A DNA stretch of 41,028 bases from the NCBI GenBank assembly GCA_964409635.1, contig CAYPEL010000002.1, forward strand, positions 1 to 41,028, in the 5' to 3' direction. The position numbers and the translations under genes are program-made. The notes beneath the pieces were generated by a model. That model did not search any database. It saw nothing but the letters and a program-made list of their open reading frames with translations, and was not told where the DNA came from. Below are positions 13,577 to 35,240 of the stretch, one piece after another. The first letter of the stretch is position 1; each line of letters starts with the position of its first letter. This stretch comes from an uncultured Gammaproteobacteria bacterium (GTDB taxonomy: Bacteria > Pseudomonadota > Gammaproteobacteria > DSM-19610).

Positions 13577-13732
13577 CTACTTAATCTTGGCTTCCTTGTA
13601 GGTTACGTGTTTGCGCACCACCGGATCGTATTTTTTCAGTTCCAGCTTGTCGGGCATGGTACGTTTGTTCTTGGTGGTGGTGTAGTAGTGGCCGGTACCG
13701 GCACTGGATACCATTTTAATTTTATCGCGCAT
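13577..13732 (-). CDS. rpmG: 50S ribosomal protein L33
   Basis: Hand translation gives [51 protein letters not shown]. At 51 aa it falls below the ORF-track cutoff. Confidence 0.95.
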
Positions 13733-13743
13733 GGTTGCTTCTC

Positions 13744-13980
13744 CTAGACCTGTTCGCCGCGGGAACGCATGCTGGCGAGGACGTCATCGATCCCCTTCTT
13801 ATCAATTATGCGTAGCCCTTTTGTCGAAATACGTAATTTAACCCAGCGGTTTTCACTGGCCACCCAGAAGCGGTGAGTATGCAGGTTTGGCAGGAACCAG
13901 CGGCGGGTTCGGTTTTTGGCGTGGGACACATTATTGCCTGCAATCGGCCGTTTGCCCGTGACCTGACACACTCTGGACAT
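13744..13980 (-). CDS. rpmB: 50S ribosomal protein L28
   Basis: [34 protein letters not shown]..., 78 aa from the internal ATG at 13980. It lies directly upstream of rpmG. Confidence 0.95.
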
Positions 13981-14275: not shown

Positions 14276-14521
14276 ATGCACCCAAATACTCTGATCAGTG
14301 ACATCATTGCTGCAGCCAAATTGCAACGTATCTCCCAAGGTGAGCTGGCCAGACGGGCGGGCATTCGGCCCGAGACCCTGTCGAGGGCAAAAAGCAACCC
14401 GAATATCCGTCTGCAGACCCTGCTCGATCTCGCCGCCGTGGTTGGCTTACGTTTGAAACTCATCCCGGATCACCCGGTGGCCGAGCAGATTGACAGCGGA
14501 ACCTTGTTCCCACCGGCATGA
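14276..14521 (+). CDS. hipB: XRE-family HTH antitoxin (HipB-like)
   Basis: 81 aa with an HTH (ISQGELARRAGIRPETLSRAK). Its stop overlaps the hipA start (ATGA). Confidence 0.8.
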   Translation: MHPNTLISDIIAAAKLQRISQGELARRAGIRPETLSRAKSNPNIRLQTLLDLAAVVGLRLKLIPDHPVAEQIDSGTLFPPA

Positions 14522-15891
14522 GTACCGACCGGGAAGCGGTGGTCTGGACGCGTTTGGGTGGAACCCCGCAACGCATGGGGCGGCTTTATGTGACGGATAC
14601 GGATTGCCGTTTTACCTACGACCCGGCCTATGTCGAGACCGGCCAACCTGGACTCGGCCTGGTTTATGCCACTGAGTATTACCAGGCAAAGACGCTGTCG
14701 CGGCCGCGAAAAAAGCCGTTTGATTTGTTTCCACCGTTGCAATCGTTGATTCCTCCCGCACAGGAAGACAATTTTCAGCGCAATCTGGCGCTGAAGTATC
14801 TGGCCTCACAAGGCATCAAGGATCTCACGGGTTTCGCCGCCGATTGGGAGATCCTGAAGGCTTCGGGGCATGGCGGTATCGGCCACCTGGATCTGTTTCC
14901 TTCAGATGACAAGGCCGGTCAATGGTATAGCACAGTGCCCGCCCACCGGCTGACTGAGATCAGTGATGAACTCGGTTTTACACTCAAGGAGTTCATGACC
15001 TGGTTTGACGAAGACATCGAGATACTGATCCAGACTGTGGGTCCTACCCCGAGCGTTGGCGGCGCCATCCCGAAGCTTTTGTTGTCGATCCCGGCGTCCG
15101 GCTGGGATGGCCGTATCGGTCTGCCGACCCGTGAAACCACGCCCGGTGTCACCGATGTCGTGTTGAAGTTTGAGCAGACCACGCGCTACCCCGGCATCAT
15201 CGAACTCGAGGCCATGGCATTGGATATGCACCGCCAGGCGGGTTTTGAAACGCCGCGCTATTGGCCGTGCCAGTTCAAGGGGATGCCGGCGCTGGCGGTT
15301 GAGCGATTCGACCGTGATACAGACAATCATCCGCTGTGTATGGAAACGCTGTATTCGATCCTGGCCTCCGGTACGCTGTTACGCAATCACTATGATTACC
15401 GTTACGACCTGATTGCGGCTGCAATCGATCAATCTGCGGTGCGTATTGCCACCGATGCGGTGGCGGCCAAGGAACACCTGTTCAGCTGCCTGATCATGTC
15501 GATGCTGACCGGTAATGGAGATTTACATTTAGAGAATCTCGCCATTCTGACACGGGACACTACCCGCGCCTTCACGCCCATTTACGATCCAACGCCGATG
15601 CGTGCCTATTCACAGCACGACATGCTCAGCGTGATGCCCTTTGGTGGCTATGGTGAGTATCCTGAAGGCAGCGATAAGGCGACCTGTTTTGTCGAAGCAA
15701 TTTCACAACTGAGTAAAAGCTTTGGTCTCAGTGCGGCGCGTTTGGCTGAACTGCTTACTGGCTTGCTGGAGGCCACAAAAGACTATGAGTCGAGGGTTAA
15801 CGCGCTTGAGACCGTCCCGGATGAGAACCGGGAGCGTTTGATTAAACGCATCACGGAGGTGAGGGGGCCGTTGGTGTCGATGCTGGATTAA
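14518..15891 (+). CDS. hipA: HipA-family serine/threonine kinase toxin
   Basis: 457 aa with a HipA N-terminal coupling region, GGAIPKLLL, and catalytic loop GNGDLHLENLAIL. Confidence 0.85.
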   Translation: MSTDREAVVWTRLGGTPQRMGRLYVTDTDCRFTYDPAYVETGQPGLGLVYATEYYQAKTLSRPRKKPFDLFPPLQSLIPPAQEDNFQRNLALKYLASQGIKDLTGFAADWEILKASGHGGIGHLDLFPSDDKAGQWYSTVPAHRLTEISDELGFTLKEFMTWFDEDIEILIQTVGPTPSVGGAIPKLLLSIPASGWDGRIGLPTRETTPGVTDVVLKFEQTTRYPGIIELEAMALDMHRQAGFETPRYWPCQFKGMPALAVERFDRDTDNHPLCMETLYSILASGTLLRNHYDYRYDLIAAAIDQSAVRIATDAVAAKEHLFSCLIMSMLTGNGDLHLENLAILTRDTTRAFTPIYDPTPMRAYSQHDMLSVMPFGGYGEYPEGSDKATCFVEAISQLSKSFGLSAARLAELLTGLLEATKDYESRVNALETVPDENRERLIKRITEVRGPLVSMLD

Positions 15892-15926: not shown

Positions 15927-16042
15927 TACGTTGATTATGTGCCCCATGATTCGCAGACCCGCTGTGAATACATCCCTGTACGCTCAGCGGCAGCTTCCCT
16001 GCTGCCGATGGTCTGCAAATCATGGGGCACATAATCAACGTA
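15927..16042 (-). repeat. 116-bp palindromic structured element, copy 1 (32-bp arms, 52-nt conserved core)
   Basis: The arms 15927-15958 and 16011-16042 are reverse complements with 1 mismatch. The core 15959-16010, read on the minus strand, matches the core of the element at 34278-34329 at 42/52 positions. The strand is chosen from a G-U wobble and a GGGA tetraloop, so it is tentative. Confidence 0.8.
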
Positions 16043-16170: not shown

Positions 16171-16845
16171 CTACAATTGTCCGCGCTCTGCCAGTGAAAC
16201 AATTTCCCCGTCGCCGATAACCAGATGATCCAGAACCGGTACATCAATGAGCGCCAGCGCTTCGCGTAATCGTTTCGTCAAGCGGACATCCGCCTGGCTG
16301 GGTTCGGCCACGCCGGACGGGTGATTATGCGCGAGAATCACCGCTGCGGCGTTGTGTGCTAGACAGCGCCGCACGACTTCACGCGGATAAACACTGGCGC
16401 CATCAATCGTGCCCTGGAACAAGTCTTCCATAATGATGACGCGGTTGCGGTTATCCAGGAACAGACAGGCAAAAACCTCGGCTGGGCGGTTGCGCAGCCG
16501 GGCGCTGATATAGGCCCGGGTGTCGTCAGGATTTTGCAGCGCGTCTTCGCGTTGTAATCGCTCCAGGGTATGCCGCCGCGCCATTTCCAGTACCGCCTGT
16601 AACTGCGCGTACTTGGCCGGCCCGAGGCCGTGCTGCCTACAAAACTGCTCAGCATTGCTGTCGAGCAGGGCGCGTAATCCACCAAATTGTGTAATCAGCG
16701 AACGCGCCAAGTCGACAGCGCTGCTGCCTGCCACGCCGGTGCGCAGAAATATGGCGAGTAATTCAGCATCGGACAGCGTGCCGGGGCCGTGCTTGAGAAG
16801 TTTTTCGCGCGGCCGTTCATCTCTTGGCCAGTTAGGAATTGCCAT
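16171..16845 (-). CDS. radC: RadC-family JAB domain protein
   Basis: 224 aa with N-terminal PRERLL-type helix-hairpin-helix region ([26 protein letters not shown]) and JAB/MPN motif ILAHNHPSG. Confidence 0.9.
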
Positions 16846-30122: not shown

Positions 30123-30461
30123 TCAGACGCCGGTGGGTATGCCAATGCTCCCCAGAAATTGCCTGGGCTGTTCTATACGAATCAATTTGTTACGCCCCTT
30201 TGGTCCGGATAGCAGGGATATTTGCGGTTTACTCACGCCGCAGTGCCGGGCAAAAAATTTAATCAGCTGCTGATTAAATTTTTTCATCCACCGGTGGGGC
30301 GACGATGCTGACTTTCAGGCACCTCGATAATGCCCATCGATCCGATTTTGTTTGGCGTCGGCTTGGATGCGCAGACTCAGGATCAGTGCCTCGCTATCCC
30401 CGCGAAACCGGGTTGTACTCGGGTTTACAATAGTGACTGGCGTCTCTGTGAGTGTACGCAT
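30123..30461 (-). pseudogene. yggU: yggU (DUF167) disrupted by two compensating frameshifts
   Basis: The ATG overlaps the yggT stop (TAATG). Frame A gives MRTLTETPVTIVNPSTTRFRGDSEALILSLRIQADAKQNRIDGHYRGA then a stop at 30315-30317. The -1 frame gives LKVSIVAPPVDEK. The original frame then resumes with NQQLIKFFARHCGVSKPQISLLSGPKGRNKLIRIEQP. Together these match the DUF167 consensus. Confidence 0.75.
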
Positions 30462-33100: not shown

Positions 33101-34219
33101 ATGGATTTTAACTCCTTACTCAAACTATTGGTTCACAAAGGTGGTTCCGACCTGTTTATTACTGCAGGTATGCCACCCAGCATGAAAGTTAATGGCCGCA
33201 TTTCACCGGTTTCTCAGTCTACGTTAACTCCTGAGCAGGCTCGCGATATCGTGGTCAGTATCATGTCTGCAGATCAGCGCAAGGAATATGAAGCAGAGCA
33301 CGAATGCAATTTCGCAATCAGTGCAACCGGCGTGGGGCGCTTCCGCGTCAGTGCATTTTACCAGCGCAATCATTGCGGCATGGTATTGCGCCGTATTGAG
33401 ACGCATATTCCGACAATAGAAGATCTGAAGCTGCCGCCTATTATAAAAAATCTGGCCATGACCAAGCGCGGCCTGATTATTTTTGTCGGTGCTACCGGCA
33501 CCGGTAAGTCCACCTCGCTTGCCTCCATGATTAGCTATCGAAATCAGAATAGCACCGGGCACATTATTACCATCGAAGACCCCATCGAATTCGTGCATCA
33601 ACATGCGGGCTGCATTATTACCCAGCGAGAAGTCGGTATTGATACTGAGAGCTTCGATGTGGCGTTGAAAAATACCCTCCGCCAGGCGCCCGATGTGATA
33701 CTGATCGGCGAAGTTCGTACCCGTGAAACCATGGATCACGCGATTGCCTTCGCTGAAACCGGGCACCTGTGTCTTGCAACACTGCATGCCAATAATGCTA
33801 ACCAGGCAATGGACCGCATCGTCAACTTTTTCCCGGAAGACCGCCGGGATCAGTTGCTGATGGACTTGTCGCTTAACTTGAAAGCCATTCTTGCTCAGCA
33901 GTTACTGCCGGCACCGGATGGTAAAAGCCGCCGGGCGGCGGTAGAAATCCTGATCAATACTCCGCTGGCATCGGATCTCATCCGTAAGGGTGAAGTCCAC
34001 GAATTGAAAGAACTGATGAAACGTTCTAATCAGCAGGGCATGAAGACCTTCGATCAGGCTTTGTACGAACTCTACAAAGCCAACGAAATTACCTACGATG
34101 ACGCGATTCACTATGCGGACTCAGAGAATGAAATACGCTTGCTGGTTAAACTCAAGGATACCGACGTGGCCAATTCCAAGGCACTGGACGGTATTACGCT
34201 AGTGGAAACGCCGGATTGA
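33101..34219 (+). CDS. pilU: PilT-paralogous type IV pilus ATPase PilU
   Basis: 372 aa with Walker A GATGTGKST and ETGHLCLATLHA. It occupies the usual position after pilT. Confidence 0.9.
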   Translation: MDFNSLLKLLVHKGGSDLFITAGMPPSMKVNGRISPVSQSTLTPEQARDIVVSIMSADQRKEYEAEHECNFAISATGVGRFRVSAFYQRNHCGMVLRRIETHIPTIEDLKLPPIIKNLAMTKRGLIIFVGATGTGKSTSLASMISYRNQNSTGHIITIEDPIEFVHQHAGCIITQREVGIDTESFDVALKNTLRQAPDVILIGEVRTRETMDHAIAFAETGHLCLATLHANNANQAMDRIVNFFPEDRRDQLLMDLSLNLKAILAQQLLPAPDGKSRRAAVEILINTPLASDLIRKGEVHELKELMKRSNQQGMKTFDQALYELYKANEITYDDAIHYADSENEIRLLVKLKDTDVANSKALDGITLVETPD

Positions 34220-34245
34220 GGCATTGAGCGGCTCGGTGTAAAACC

Positions 34246-34361
34246 GTACGCCAGTTAGCCGGCCAGCTTTTCGTGACCGTTGGCAGCATGGAAGCTGCCA
34301 TCGAGCGCACAGGGATGTGTTTACAGCGAGTCACGAAAAGCTGGCCGGCTAACTGGCGTAC
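34246..34361 (+). repeat. 116-bp palindromic structured element, copy 2 (perfect 32-bp arms, 52-nt conserved core)
   Basis: 34246-34277 is the exact reverse complement of 34330-34361. The core 34278-34329 matches the minus strand of 15959-16010 at 42/52 positions. The right arm abuts the stop codon of the PyrK-like gene. Confidence 0.8.
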
Positions 34362-35240
34362 TCACTGGGCTGTATATATCGCACTGGCTTCAAAAACGGG
34401 TCCGTCAACGCAAACGCGTTGCATCGCGGGCCCGTTTTTCGTTGCTACTTCTACCACGCAGCCGGCACAGCCACCCACAGCGCAGGCCATGTACTCTTCC
34501 AATGAAACCTGGCAGGGTAAATTAAATTCATCCGCCATTGCTGCGCAAGCGCTCAACATGGCGTGCGGGCCGCATGCATAGACTGCGACTTCCCGGCGTT
34601 GAGCCGCGTTGAGTGAAGCCAACCAATGCCGTGCGAGGTCAGTAATGTAGCCGTCAAAGCAGCCGGGATAATTCTGTAGGCTGGCGAGCCGGCTGGGAAT
34701 TTTCCAGTCTTCCATAAGTGGCATGGCCGCTATGGTGCCATCCGGCAAACCGGGTACGATGATTTTTGAAGGTTGTATGGTAAAGGGAAATGGAACTTCG
34801 GAACCCATGAGTAGCAGTGGTTGGCAGGTGCTGTCATTTCTTAACTGCTCAGCTAAAAATACCATCGGTGGAATACCTACACCGCCGCCGAGCAGCAAAG
34901 CTCGTGGCCGCTGTGGATCAACTTTGAACGGTATCCCGATGGGTCCGAGCATACTCAAATGTTCGTCCGGCTTGCGTTGCGCCAACAGCCGGGTACCTTT
35001 GCCGACTGATTTGTATAAAAAATCGACCCAGCCAGCCTCTGGATTCACGCGCATTATCGAAAGCGGCCGGCGCATGGGGAGTGCGGGATCACACTGTAAA
35101 TGGACAAACTGCCCGGCCTTTGCGAATGACGCGCACTTGGCTGCGTTAACGCGCAGGATAAACTGATCACCTGAAAAAGCCATATGGCTGATGATGCGTG
35201 CCTGTTCCAGGTGAATGGTGCCGCGATGTACCCGCTTCAT
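34362..35240 (-). CDS. PyrK-like flavoprotein (dihydroorotate dehydrogenase electron-transfer subunit family)
   Basis: FAD motif RRPLSI, NAD motif LLGGGVGIPP, and C-terminal 2Fe-2S motif CAVGGCAGC...CVDGPVF. The ATG at 35240 overlaps the pyrC' stop (ATGA). Confidence 0.8.
   Translation of the reverse strand: MKRVHRGTIHLEQARIISHMAFSGDQFILRVNAAKCASFAKAGQFVHLQCDPALPMRRPLSIMRVNPEAGWVDFLYKSVGKGTRLLAQRKPDEHLSMLGPIGIPFKVDPQRPRALLLGGGVGIPPMVFLAEQLRNDSTCQPLLLMGSEVPFPFTIQPSKIIVPGLPDGTIAAMPLMEDWKIPSRLASLQNYPGCFDGYITDLARHWLASLNAAQRREVAVYACGPHAMLSACAAMADEFNLPCQVSLEEYMACAVGGCAGCVVEVATKNGPAMQRVCVDGPVFEASAIYTAQ

Follow-up and report, generated by a model that had tools for sequence, protein, structure and literature searches.

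A dispersed stem-and-core module in marine and sediment Gammaproteobacteria related to YPAL/RU-2 and TwoAYGGAY, with a candidate dual CsrA/RsmA site

Introduction

Two described element families come closest to the subject of this work, a 116-bp structured module that occurs twice in a 41,028-nt stretch of an uncultured gammaproteobacterium (contig CAYPEL010000002.1; the whole stretch is called the window, and all position numbers refer to it unless a locus is named). YPAL, or RU-2, is a 168-bp Yersinia miniature inverted-repeat transposable element (MITE) (De Gregorio 2006; Delihas 2007; PMC2759123, PMC2229807) that reaches 40 to 140 copies per Yersinia genome (PMC2847712). It is recognised as a MITE, with target-site duplications of 3–26 bp next to dyad symmetry (PMC2229807), is intergenic with filled and empty sites and is co-transcribed with its neighbors (PMC2759123, PMC2229807), possibly affecting the stability of upstream transcripts (PMC2229807). 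TwoAYGGAY (RF01731, Weinberg et al. 2010, PMC2864571) is an orphan RNA motif whose two terminal loops read AYGGAY and whose P1 stem is frequently very long, e.g., 24 base pairs. Gardner and Eldai proposed that it binds CsrA (PMC4333381). The CsrA consensus obtained by in vitro selection (SELEX) is RUACARGGAUGU with the GGA in a short hairpin loop, and one CsrA dimer bridges two sites that are 10–63 nt apart (PMC7652899).

Judged by the alignments and scores described below, the window elements are divergent relatives of YPAL/RU-2 and TwoAYGGAY that fall below the Rfam thresholds of both, and their arm-variable 116-nt minimal form has not been described so far. The explanation that we favor, at a probability of about one half, is that of an inserted and then domesticated RNA module in which a dual CsrA/RsmA site would be carried on an insulating stem that is long enough for RNase III.

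Structure of the two copies

In RNA sense, copy 1 is read on the minus strand and copy 2 on the plus strand. Inverted-repeat analysis of copy 1 yields 33-nt arms (15927–15959 and 16010–16042) that pair with a single mismatch, C15952 versus A16017, and are separated by 50 nt. Equivalently, the copy consists of 32-bp arms around a 52-nt core whose terminal bases are also paired. In this description, the 5′ arm of the outer stem P1 lies at 16011–16042 (minus strand; R1 covariance-model match 120.7 bits), the core at 15959–16010 and the 3′ arm at 15927–15958; both arms come from the inverted repeat and are paired in the minimum free energy fold, and the core is found by its sequence pattern and by R1. 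The arms of copy 2 (5′ arm 34246–34277, 3′ arm 34330–34361, plus strand; R1 match 125.1 bits) pair at 32/32 positions and enclose a 52-nt core (34278–34329, plus strand) that is likewise found by the pattern and by R1. Its 3′ arm abuts the stop codon (34362–34364) of a PyrK-like gene.

The core takes on a three-way junction with two hairpins, each of which carries a hexaloop A-N-G-G-A-N closed by C-G. In copy 1, hairpin P2 (15985–16010, minus strand; core positions 1–26) has a 10-position stem with position 3 unpaired and the hexaloop AGGGAA, which places GGA at 15996–15998. Hairpin P3 (15961–15983, minus strand; core positions 28–50) contains GUACAGGGAUGU at 15970–15981 with GGA at 15973–15975. 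In copy 2, P2 (34278–34303, plus strand) has the hexaloop AUGGAA with GGA at 34290–34292, and P3 (34305–34327, plus strand) contains GCACAGGGAUGU at 34307–34318 with GGA at 34313–34315. The P3 loop is AGGGAU in both copies.

The two cores, each in RNA sense, align without gaps and are identical at 42/52 positions; counted by hand, the arms of the two copies agree at 12/32 positions. Of the ten differences between the cores, six are compensatory and form three pairs, namely 2/25 (A-U versus G-C), 4/23 (C-G versus U-A), and 31/42 (U-A versus C-G). A core pattern with 31 specified bases is found at only these two places in the window and at none in 100 shuffles, and R1, run with filters off, detects no further copy within the window. 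Folding z-scores amount to −10 to −13 for the whole elements (folding energy −79 to −89 kcal/mol) and to −2.4 to −4.4 for the cores alone. An earlier sequence-only reading of this DNA had described two 116-bp elements with ∼32-bp arms around a 52-nt core, the C15952/A16017 mismatch and the 42/52 core identity, all of which agree with these measurements. Its two compensatory pairs, 4/23 and 31/42, are real, although the third, 2/25, had been missed.

A family with covarying helices

A genome scan with the core pattern returned eight loci from metagenome-assembled genomes labeled Acidiferrobacteraceae, Sedimenticola, Thiogranum, Pseudomonadales, Enterobacteriaceae, and unclassified Gammaproteobacteria. 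A metagenome scan with a looser pattern, in which the stems were left free, returned 63 loci, and the pattern scan gave no core match in viral contigs. R1 has 94 matches in the window and the 71 collected loci, 92 of them in the loci and often two to four within a few kb. Pattern and covariance-model searches together give ∼95 copies in marine and sediment Gammaproteobacteria, which bears out the anticipated recurrence of the element in relatives. In nearly all copies that are uncut by contig ends, inverted arms abut the 52-nt core, with a typical stem of 25–34 bp. The exceptions are a few copies whose arms have decayed and two tandem duplications, in each of which the second unit lacks the 5′ arm.

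These tandem arrays (L002:5100-5350 and L003:1-190) repeat a unit of core, 3′ arm and a few nucleotides at intervals of 106 and 93 nt. A 5′ arm is missing from the second core, and the L003 contig stops inside the array. A further peculiarity is a ∼42-nt mini-insert (GAAGGTGAGACCGGGAACCGGTCGAGAGGCTGGCCTGGGCCA) that always lies directly 3′ of CAGGGA within a GGA hairpin loop. It is present in loop 1 of L017, L025, L038:770-930, L045:2182-2342, and L062:954-1114, in loop 2 of L037:9766-9928, and on the minus strand of L021 near 6665; L017 and L025 carry it as a tandem pair. By its appearance, it could be another, nested miniature insertion element with a specificity for these GGA loops.

Covariation was measured on an ungapped alignment of 47 non-redundant copies, in which pairs were counted against the named structure. 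Paired cells make up 93.6%, compared to 61% in shuffles and 33–44% when the partner column is slid. Double changes occur in 40/45 pairs, and all three helices covary, including all 32 pairs of the arms. P2 is paired at 99.3% and shows double changes at 5/9 pairs. The upper stem of P3 comprises 3 bp with compensatory variants such as GUC/GAC, CCC/GGG, and UAU/AUA. Core positions 30/48 are occupied by G·A (56 copies), C-G (10) or G-C (5), and a lower P3 helix of 28–30 with 48–50 is therefore indicated. RNAalifold independently arrives at the same three-way junction and draws both loops as hexaloops, and 27 columns of the family alignment are invariant. A structured element with a conserved branched core inside a long, sequence-variable stem, as originally proposed, is thus what the family displays. 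The GGGA of P3 had additionally been taken for a GNRA-type tetraloop. This assignment does not hold, since the pair that would close it (A34-N39) is missing in 16/47 copies, and RNAalifold draws an A-GGGA-N hexaloop instead.

Relation to described elements

Rfam searches of the window at gathering thresholds gave no match. The following leads come from relaxed searches in E-value mode, where matches to miRNA families were ignored as generic long-hairpin matches. Ysr224 (RF02770) matches weakly on the opposite strand, with 17–34 bits (17.3 for copy 1) against a gathering score of 70. The Ysr224 consensus in turn finds a Yersinia element with essentially the sequence of the published 168-nt RU-2/YPAL, and R1 scores the Yersinia YPAL with 61.8 bits and an element from an Escherichia coli plasmid with 47.1 bits. 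The window cores align along their entire length with the central 53 nt of YPAL (CGTCCGCGCCAAGGATGGCGCGGCTCGAGCCTACATGGATGTATTTACGGCGT), which has the same GGA hairpins, junction and tail. The core is therefore homologous to the center of the YPAL/RU-2 MITE. The two elements differ in their outer parts: YPAL is 168 bp long with flanks that are conserved among copies, whereas the window copies are 116 bp long with arms unrelated to the YPAL flanks. Moreover, Ysr224 in Rfam models the UCC strand, opposite to the GGA strand. On a Yersinia similis plasmid (L081:200-520), YPAL is bracketed by a duplicated terminator-like hairpin (AAACCGCCTTTATGGCGGTTT), which agrees with the published variable target duplications beside dyad symmetry. 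The relative on the E. coli plasmid (L082) is bracketed by another hairpin (CAGGGGC...GCCCCTG).

TwoAYGGAY resembles the family in its two adjacent hairpins with A-N-G-G-A-N terminal loops inside a large P1 (32–33 bp in the window) and in being multicopy in the gammaproteobacterium Psychromonas without being tied to 5′ untranslated regions. Copy 1 scores 32.9 bits over the full model length (gathering 43 bits) and copy 2 has no match at E ≤ 10, while the family member L007:2571-2697 passes the gathering score with 47.3 bits. The window loops keep the GGA and the flanking A, with Y at position 2 in only one of the four loops, so that they fall outside AYGGAY in the strict sense; true AYGGAY loops exist in some family members (L068:1-120, L061:11871). 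Position 2 is usually a purine in the present family (AGGGAA, AGGGAU), in contrast to the Y of TwoAYGGAY. The second hairpin of the window copies is also much shorter, the match skipping eight consensus positions of the Rfam stem, and the junction and tail (UCGAGCG, UUYACAGCGU) are particular to the present family. The label "novel" in the sequence-only reading cannot be kept, given the homology of the core to the YPAL/RU-2 center (Ysr224) and the TwoAYGGAY architecture with a member above threshold.

The decoy RNAs CsrB, CsrC and RsmX/Y/Z share with the family GGA motifs in hairpin loops that fit CANGGANG and multiple sites spaced for dimer bridging (PMC7652899). Each of them is encoded at a single locus with a terminator and a GacA/UvrY-dependent promoter of its own and carries 5–22 sites, whereas the present family has two sites per module in many dispersed modules, no promoter or terminator and no Rfam similarity to them. 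REP/BIME, ERIC/IRU, Correia and CGTC-tagged REP elements are likewise small intergenic palindromes with an RNA fold; they often follow stop codons and in some cases sit inside larger palindromes (PMC3733652). All of these elements conserve the palindrome arm or terminus and vary the center; the present module does the reverse. CGTC-tagged REPs have an unpaired CGTC tag, an A-T-starting stem of 8–9 bp, a 4–5-nt loop and a CCA tail (PMC3733652). Membership in this class is ruled out by the CGUC of the module, which is paired in a 10-position stem, the 6-nt loop and the missing CCA tail. ERIC was dropped, as its consensus sequence appears to be different. Hammerhead, twister, pistol, group II domain 5, attC, Y RNA and retron msr/msd gave no match in the Rfam searches. 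They were set aside as presumably lacking the relevant consensus features or partner genes. Terminal inverted repeats (TIRs) conserved among copies, which together with a target-site duplication characterize a classical MITE, are not found in the window copies.

The CsrA/RsmA signature

The P3 element GUACAGGGAUGU of copy 1 matches the CsrA SELEX consensus at 12/12 positions and GCACAGGGAUGU of copy 2 at 11/12, compared to 0.34 matches with at most one mismatch expected by chance across the whole window. In either copy, both loops conform to the CsrA/RsmA site CANGGANG, and the distance between the two GGA motifs is 23 nt, which is within the 10–63 nt range for bridging by a dimer. In ∼20 copies that were found by the model only, as well as in L079, YPAL and the E. 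coli-plasmid relative, GGA is kept in both loops, and the loops in pattern-independent copies include AGGGAU, ACGGAU, AUGGAC and AAGGAU. In L038:6746-6914, loop 1 carries an insert with two extra GGA hairpins (GCACAGGGATGTGC, GGGCAGGATGCCC), so that GGA sites have accumulated. The Rfam motif closest to the family, TwoAYGGAY, was predicted in independent work to bind CsrA as well (PMC4333381). CANGGANG is not enriched over the window as a whole; the case for CsrA rests on its placement in the conserved loops.

Insertion, conservation in place and strand preference

Copy 2 lies 26 nt (34220–34245) downstream of a pilU-like ATPase gene (33101–34219, plus strand) and in sense to it. In the nearest relative (L073, PilU 93% identical), the stop codons of pilU and the PyrK-like gene overlap, and spacer, module and both arms are absent together. 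The L073 site is empty of either arm, and the arms of copy 2 therefore arrived with the element instead of being copied from the target. By this comparison, copy 2 is an insertion that brought both arms, contrary to the suggestion of a tiny mobile core that creates inverted duplications of its flanks. A target duplication is not recognizable against the L073 site, where the sequences are too diverged to place the junction. At this gene junction, the spacer of Thiogranum longum measures 91 nt and is unrelated. In another close relative (L074:3630-3750), REP-like hairpins (TTCCCACGCTCCAGCGTGGGAA plus an inverted partner that has diverged) occupy the place of copy 2 downstream of pilU.

Copy 1 lies 128 nt downstream of radC (16171–16845, minus strand; assigned by Pfam), also in sense. 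In L079, whose RadC is 88% identical, a module is located at the matching place, directly upstream of TCGGAT, a motif common to both that lies ahead of the rpmB leader. The two share 50/52 core bases, including the rare A2-U25 variant. Their arms are identical at only 19/32 and 17/32 positions, and the four-fold degenerate sites of radC at 43%, yet both sets of arms are fully paired. The L079 module is likely an ortholog of copy 1, which would mean that core and pairing are conserved in place, unlike in a decaying selfish repeat. Among other relatives at similar distance, the radC–rpmB spacer is empty in L083 and L084, and no module is found downstream of radC in L080 and L077. Empty sites, which the sequence-only reading had wanted for comparison, thus exist at both places; at the radC site, the pattern fits a gain that was later lost as well as several separate gains.

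The arms are variable in sequence, as originally noted, though they are not wholly unrelated across the family. Conserved pairs are GAC/GUC at the junction, U-A at arm positions 8–9 and G-C at 17–18, and 24/47 copies chain at ≥61% arm identity. The arms of the family are thus fast-diverging homologs in a continuum and not unrelated or acquired sequences.

The strand on which the stem is maintained can be read from its mismatches, which under neutrality should be G·U and A·C equally often whichever strand is chosen. For the GGA strand, the raw counts are 58 G·U versus 14 A·C, and 44 G·U versus 14 A·C (p = 1e-4) when one event is counted per arm cluster. By this excess of G·U, a single strand is under selection, namely the minus strand in copy 1 and the plus strand in copy 2. 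It also supports the earlier view that the minus strand is the meaningful one for copy 1.

Proposed function and competing explanations

The structure, its covariation, the strand preference, the insertion, the conservation in place and the fit to the CsrA consensus are observed, and from these observations we infer transcription, CsrA binding, processing and an effect in the cell as follows. The ∼116-nt dispersed intergenic module, mobile now or in the past, would act as RNA on the strand that carries GGA. P1 (25–34 bp), free to vary in sequence as long as pairing is kept, closes a three-way junction that presents two side-by-side hairpins, and their loops would serve as a dual high-affinity site for one CsrA/RsmA dimer. 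P1 would insulate this fold from whichever transcript hosts the module and is long enough to act as an RNase III substrate or a 3′-exonuclease barrier; processing of the stem by RNase III is plausible. The module could thereby put its host transcript under the influence of CsrA, or the many copies summed could buffer free CsrA. It inserts as a complete unit with its arms, in some lineages inside TIR-bounded MITEs, after which it would be selected in place while its center can take either orientation between the arms.

Several points weigh against this explanation. The GGA motifs of 74 pattern-selected copies were forced by the search pattern, which leaves only ∼25 copies as independent evidence. 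The lack of window-wide enrichment of CANGGANG has been mentioned. A tblastn search with an approximate E. coli CsrA query found no csrA in the window and L001–L071, a sample of ∼0.47 Mb from many genomes that is too small to be informative, and the presence of CsrA in the source organism is an assumption. The predicted binding is weakened by the stem length, as SELEX hairpins are short and the module presents its loop on a 10-bp stem. In Rsm RNAs, CsrA is known to bind loops carried by stems of 10 bp. Scans found no promoter-like or terminator-like site accompanying either window copy. Each window copy lies in a 3′ untranslated region with the sense orientation of its gene, radC or pilU, and both occupy convergent junctions as first described; across the family, however, contexts are mixed and orientation relative to the neighboring open reading frames (ORFs) is near random (++15, −−10, +−10, −+4). 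In many copies, read-through would therefore fail to produce the GGA strand. No other point weakens models of RNA acting in cis as much as this near-random orientation, which fits MITE-like insertion, flipping or both. Finally, the complementarity of the arms could be maintained by arm-to-arm gene conversion instead of selection at the RNA level.

The strongest competitor, unlikely in our view without being negligible, is a selfish miniature transposable element, whose core hairpins would be a single-stranded DNA or RNA structure for a transposase or mobilizing enzyme acting in trans, the GGA loops being incidental to the host. It would account for the filled and empty sites, for the near-random orientation, for the several copies within a few kb in some contigs and for the homology to YPAL, a recognized MITE with target-site duplications (PMC2229807), and the wobble bias is also compatible with a single-stranded DNA intermediate. 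The amplification of module and arms inside TIR-bounded MITEs in some lineages speaks for it as well and corrects the remark in the sequence-only reading that the element is the opposite of MITE logic. A selfish repeat is expected to decay, yet the core is kept at 50/52 between likely orthologs whose synonymous sites have reached saturation. Conservation is lowest in the arms, where a MITE would have its termini for transposase binding. None of the loci examined has an associated transposase, and the exact 12-mer match to the CsrA SELEX consensus would have to be coincidence.

A generic RNA stability or processing element, in which the stem is an RNase III site or 3′-exonuclease barrier as proposed for REP, ERIC and YPAL, and the core only nucleates folding with no role for CsrA, is rather improbable. 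The near-perfect duplex of 28–33 bp does have the length of an RNase III substrate, both window copies follow stop codons in 3′ untranslated regions, and YPAL is reported to be co-transcribed and possibly to alter upstream transcript stability (PMC2229807). For such a role the stem alone would suffice, however, which leaves unexplained the near-invariant loops and junction with their 27 invariant columns and the retention of GGA in pattern-independent copies. In addition, ∼40% of co-directional copies are antisense to their neighbors.

Core orientation is the starting point for two further proposals, both of which are doubtful. The core of the L079 module lies on the opposite strand relative to radC when compared to copy 1. 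A ∼215-bp carrier MITE (TIR CACTGCTGTCCCGTTAAC, group G1) harbors the module in L010, L023, L024, L030, L047, and L057, and its core is inverted relative to the asymmetric outer parts in 2/6 copies (L023 and L057 versus L010, L024, L030, and L047). A ∼330-bp carrier MITE (TIR CCTGATTATCACTGAAACTCAG, group G2, L016–L062) contains two modules in opposite orientation, head to head. Inversion between the arms would be the most economical explanation of both core orientations. Independent insertions are possible; ambiguity in the assembly is less probable, given that the final k-mer is usually longer than the arms.

The first proposal is an invertible or cruciform element at the DNA level, with the arms mediating inversion of the 52-bp center, which would work as a switch, a recombination site or a protein-bound cruciform. 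Besides the varying core orientation in G1 and between copy 1 and L079, it can draw on the arm length, which is near the minimum for homologous recombination. It is opposed by the bias of G·U over A·C, which a double-stranded or cruciform function does not predict, by the lack of a promoter-like site in the core and by the size of the loop, since 52 bp is short for recombinase synapsis; the two orientations could also have arisen by independent insertions or, less likely, assembly ambiguity. The second proposal, an equally long shot, combines inversion with CsrA. As a portable, invertible CsrA clamp, the many copies (dozens to hundreds per genome) would form a distributed sponge or tag, and recombination between the ∼30-bp arms would flip the GGA/UCC face and tune the CsrA regulon heritably, locus by locus. 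Flipping would at the same time drive arm-to-arm conversion, so that stems stay perfect while their sequence drifts.

The guide-like or antisense module considered by the sequence-only reading, with copy-specific arms processed to small RNAs that target matching sequences, has next to nothing left in its favor beyond arms that are copy-specific, ∼32 nt long and able to form a duplex long enough for RNase III, as these show no match better than chance 10–12-mers in the window or the collected loci and none in phage and plasmid collections, drift at a near-neutral rate between likely orthologs and form a continuum of diverged homologs instead of acquired sequences.

Two other roles were rejected. 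The module is not an intrinsic terminator, as no T run follows either copy and the scans find no terminator at the element. A replication-oriented single-stranded DNA element was dropped with the copies being on opposite strands in a window of uniformly positive GC skew.

Neighboring features in the window

A hipA-like gene (14276–15891, plus strand) lies between radC with copy 1 on the one side and rpmB (13744–13980, minus strand) and rpmG (13577–13732, minus strand) on the other, and a putative 81-aa ORF, possibly hipB, overlaps its start. In L079, L083 and L084, radC is directly followed by rpmB (plus rpmG in L079 and L084), and the toxin–antitoxin-like pair is therefore taken as an insertion next to copy 1.

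Beyond copy 2, an inverted repeat at 34392–34439 (AAAAACGGGTCCG...CGGGCCCGTTTTT) is terminator-like in appearance, lies inside the 3′ end of the PyrK-like gene and encodes the conserved ...DGPVF tail. It was rejected as a bidirectional intergenic terminator because it is within the coding region, the Pfam Fe-S domain extending to residue 311 of 316. A perfect AT-rich 16-bp palindrome with a 1-nt center (AAAAAATTTAATCAGC/GCTGATTAAATTTTTT, 30252–30284) has the look of a bidirectional terminator.

Implications

The common 52-nt core joins the YPAL/RU-2 MITE, the "sRNA" (small RNA) Ysr224 and the orphan TwoAYGGAY motif in one superfamily that reaches uncultured marine lineages of sulfur oxidizers. 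That the core is conserved in place next to saturated sites is uncommon among MITE-like repeats and suggests domestication. The exact SELEX match and the correct spacing of the dual site give these orphan elements a concrete question, which is the binding of CsrA. If CsrA binds, mobile repeats would spread CsrA control or buffering around the genome, and YPAL in Yersinia would become relevant to Csr-dependent virulence regulation.

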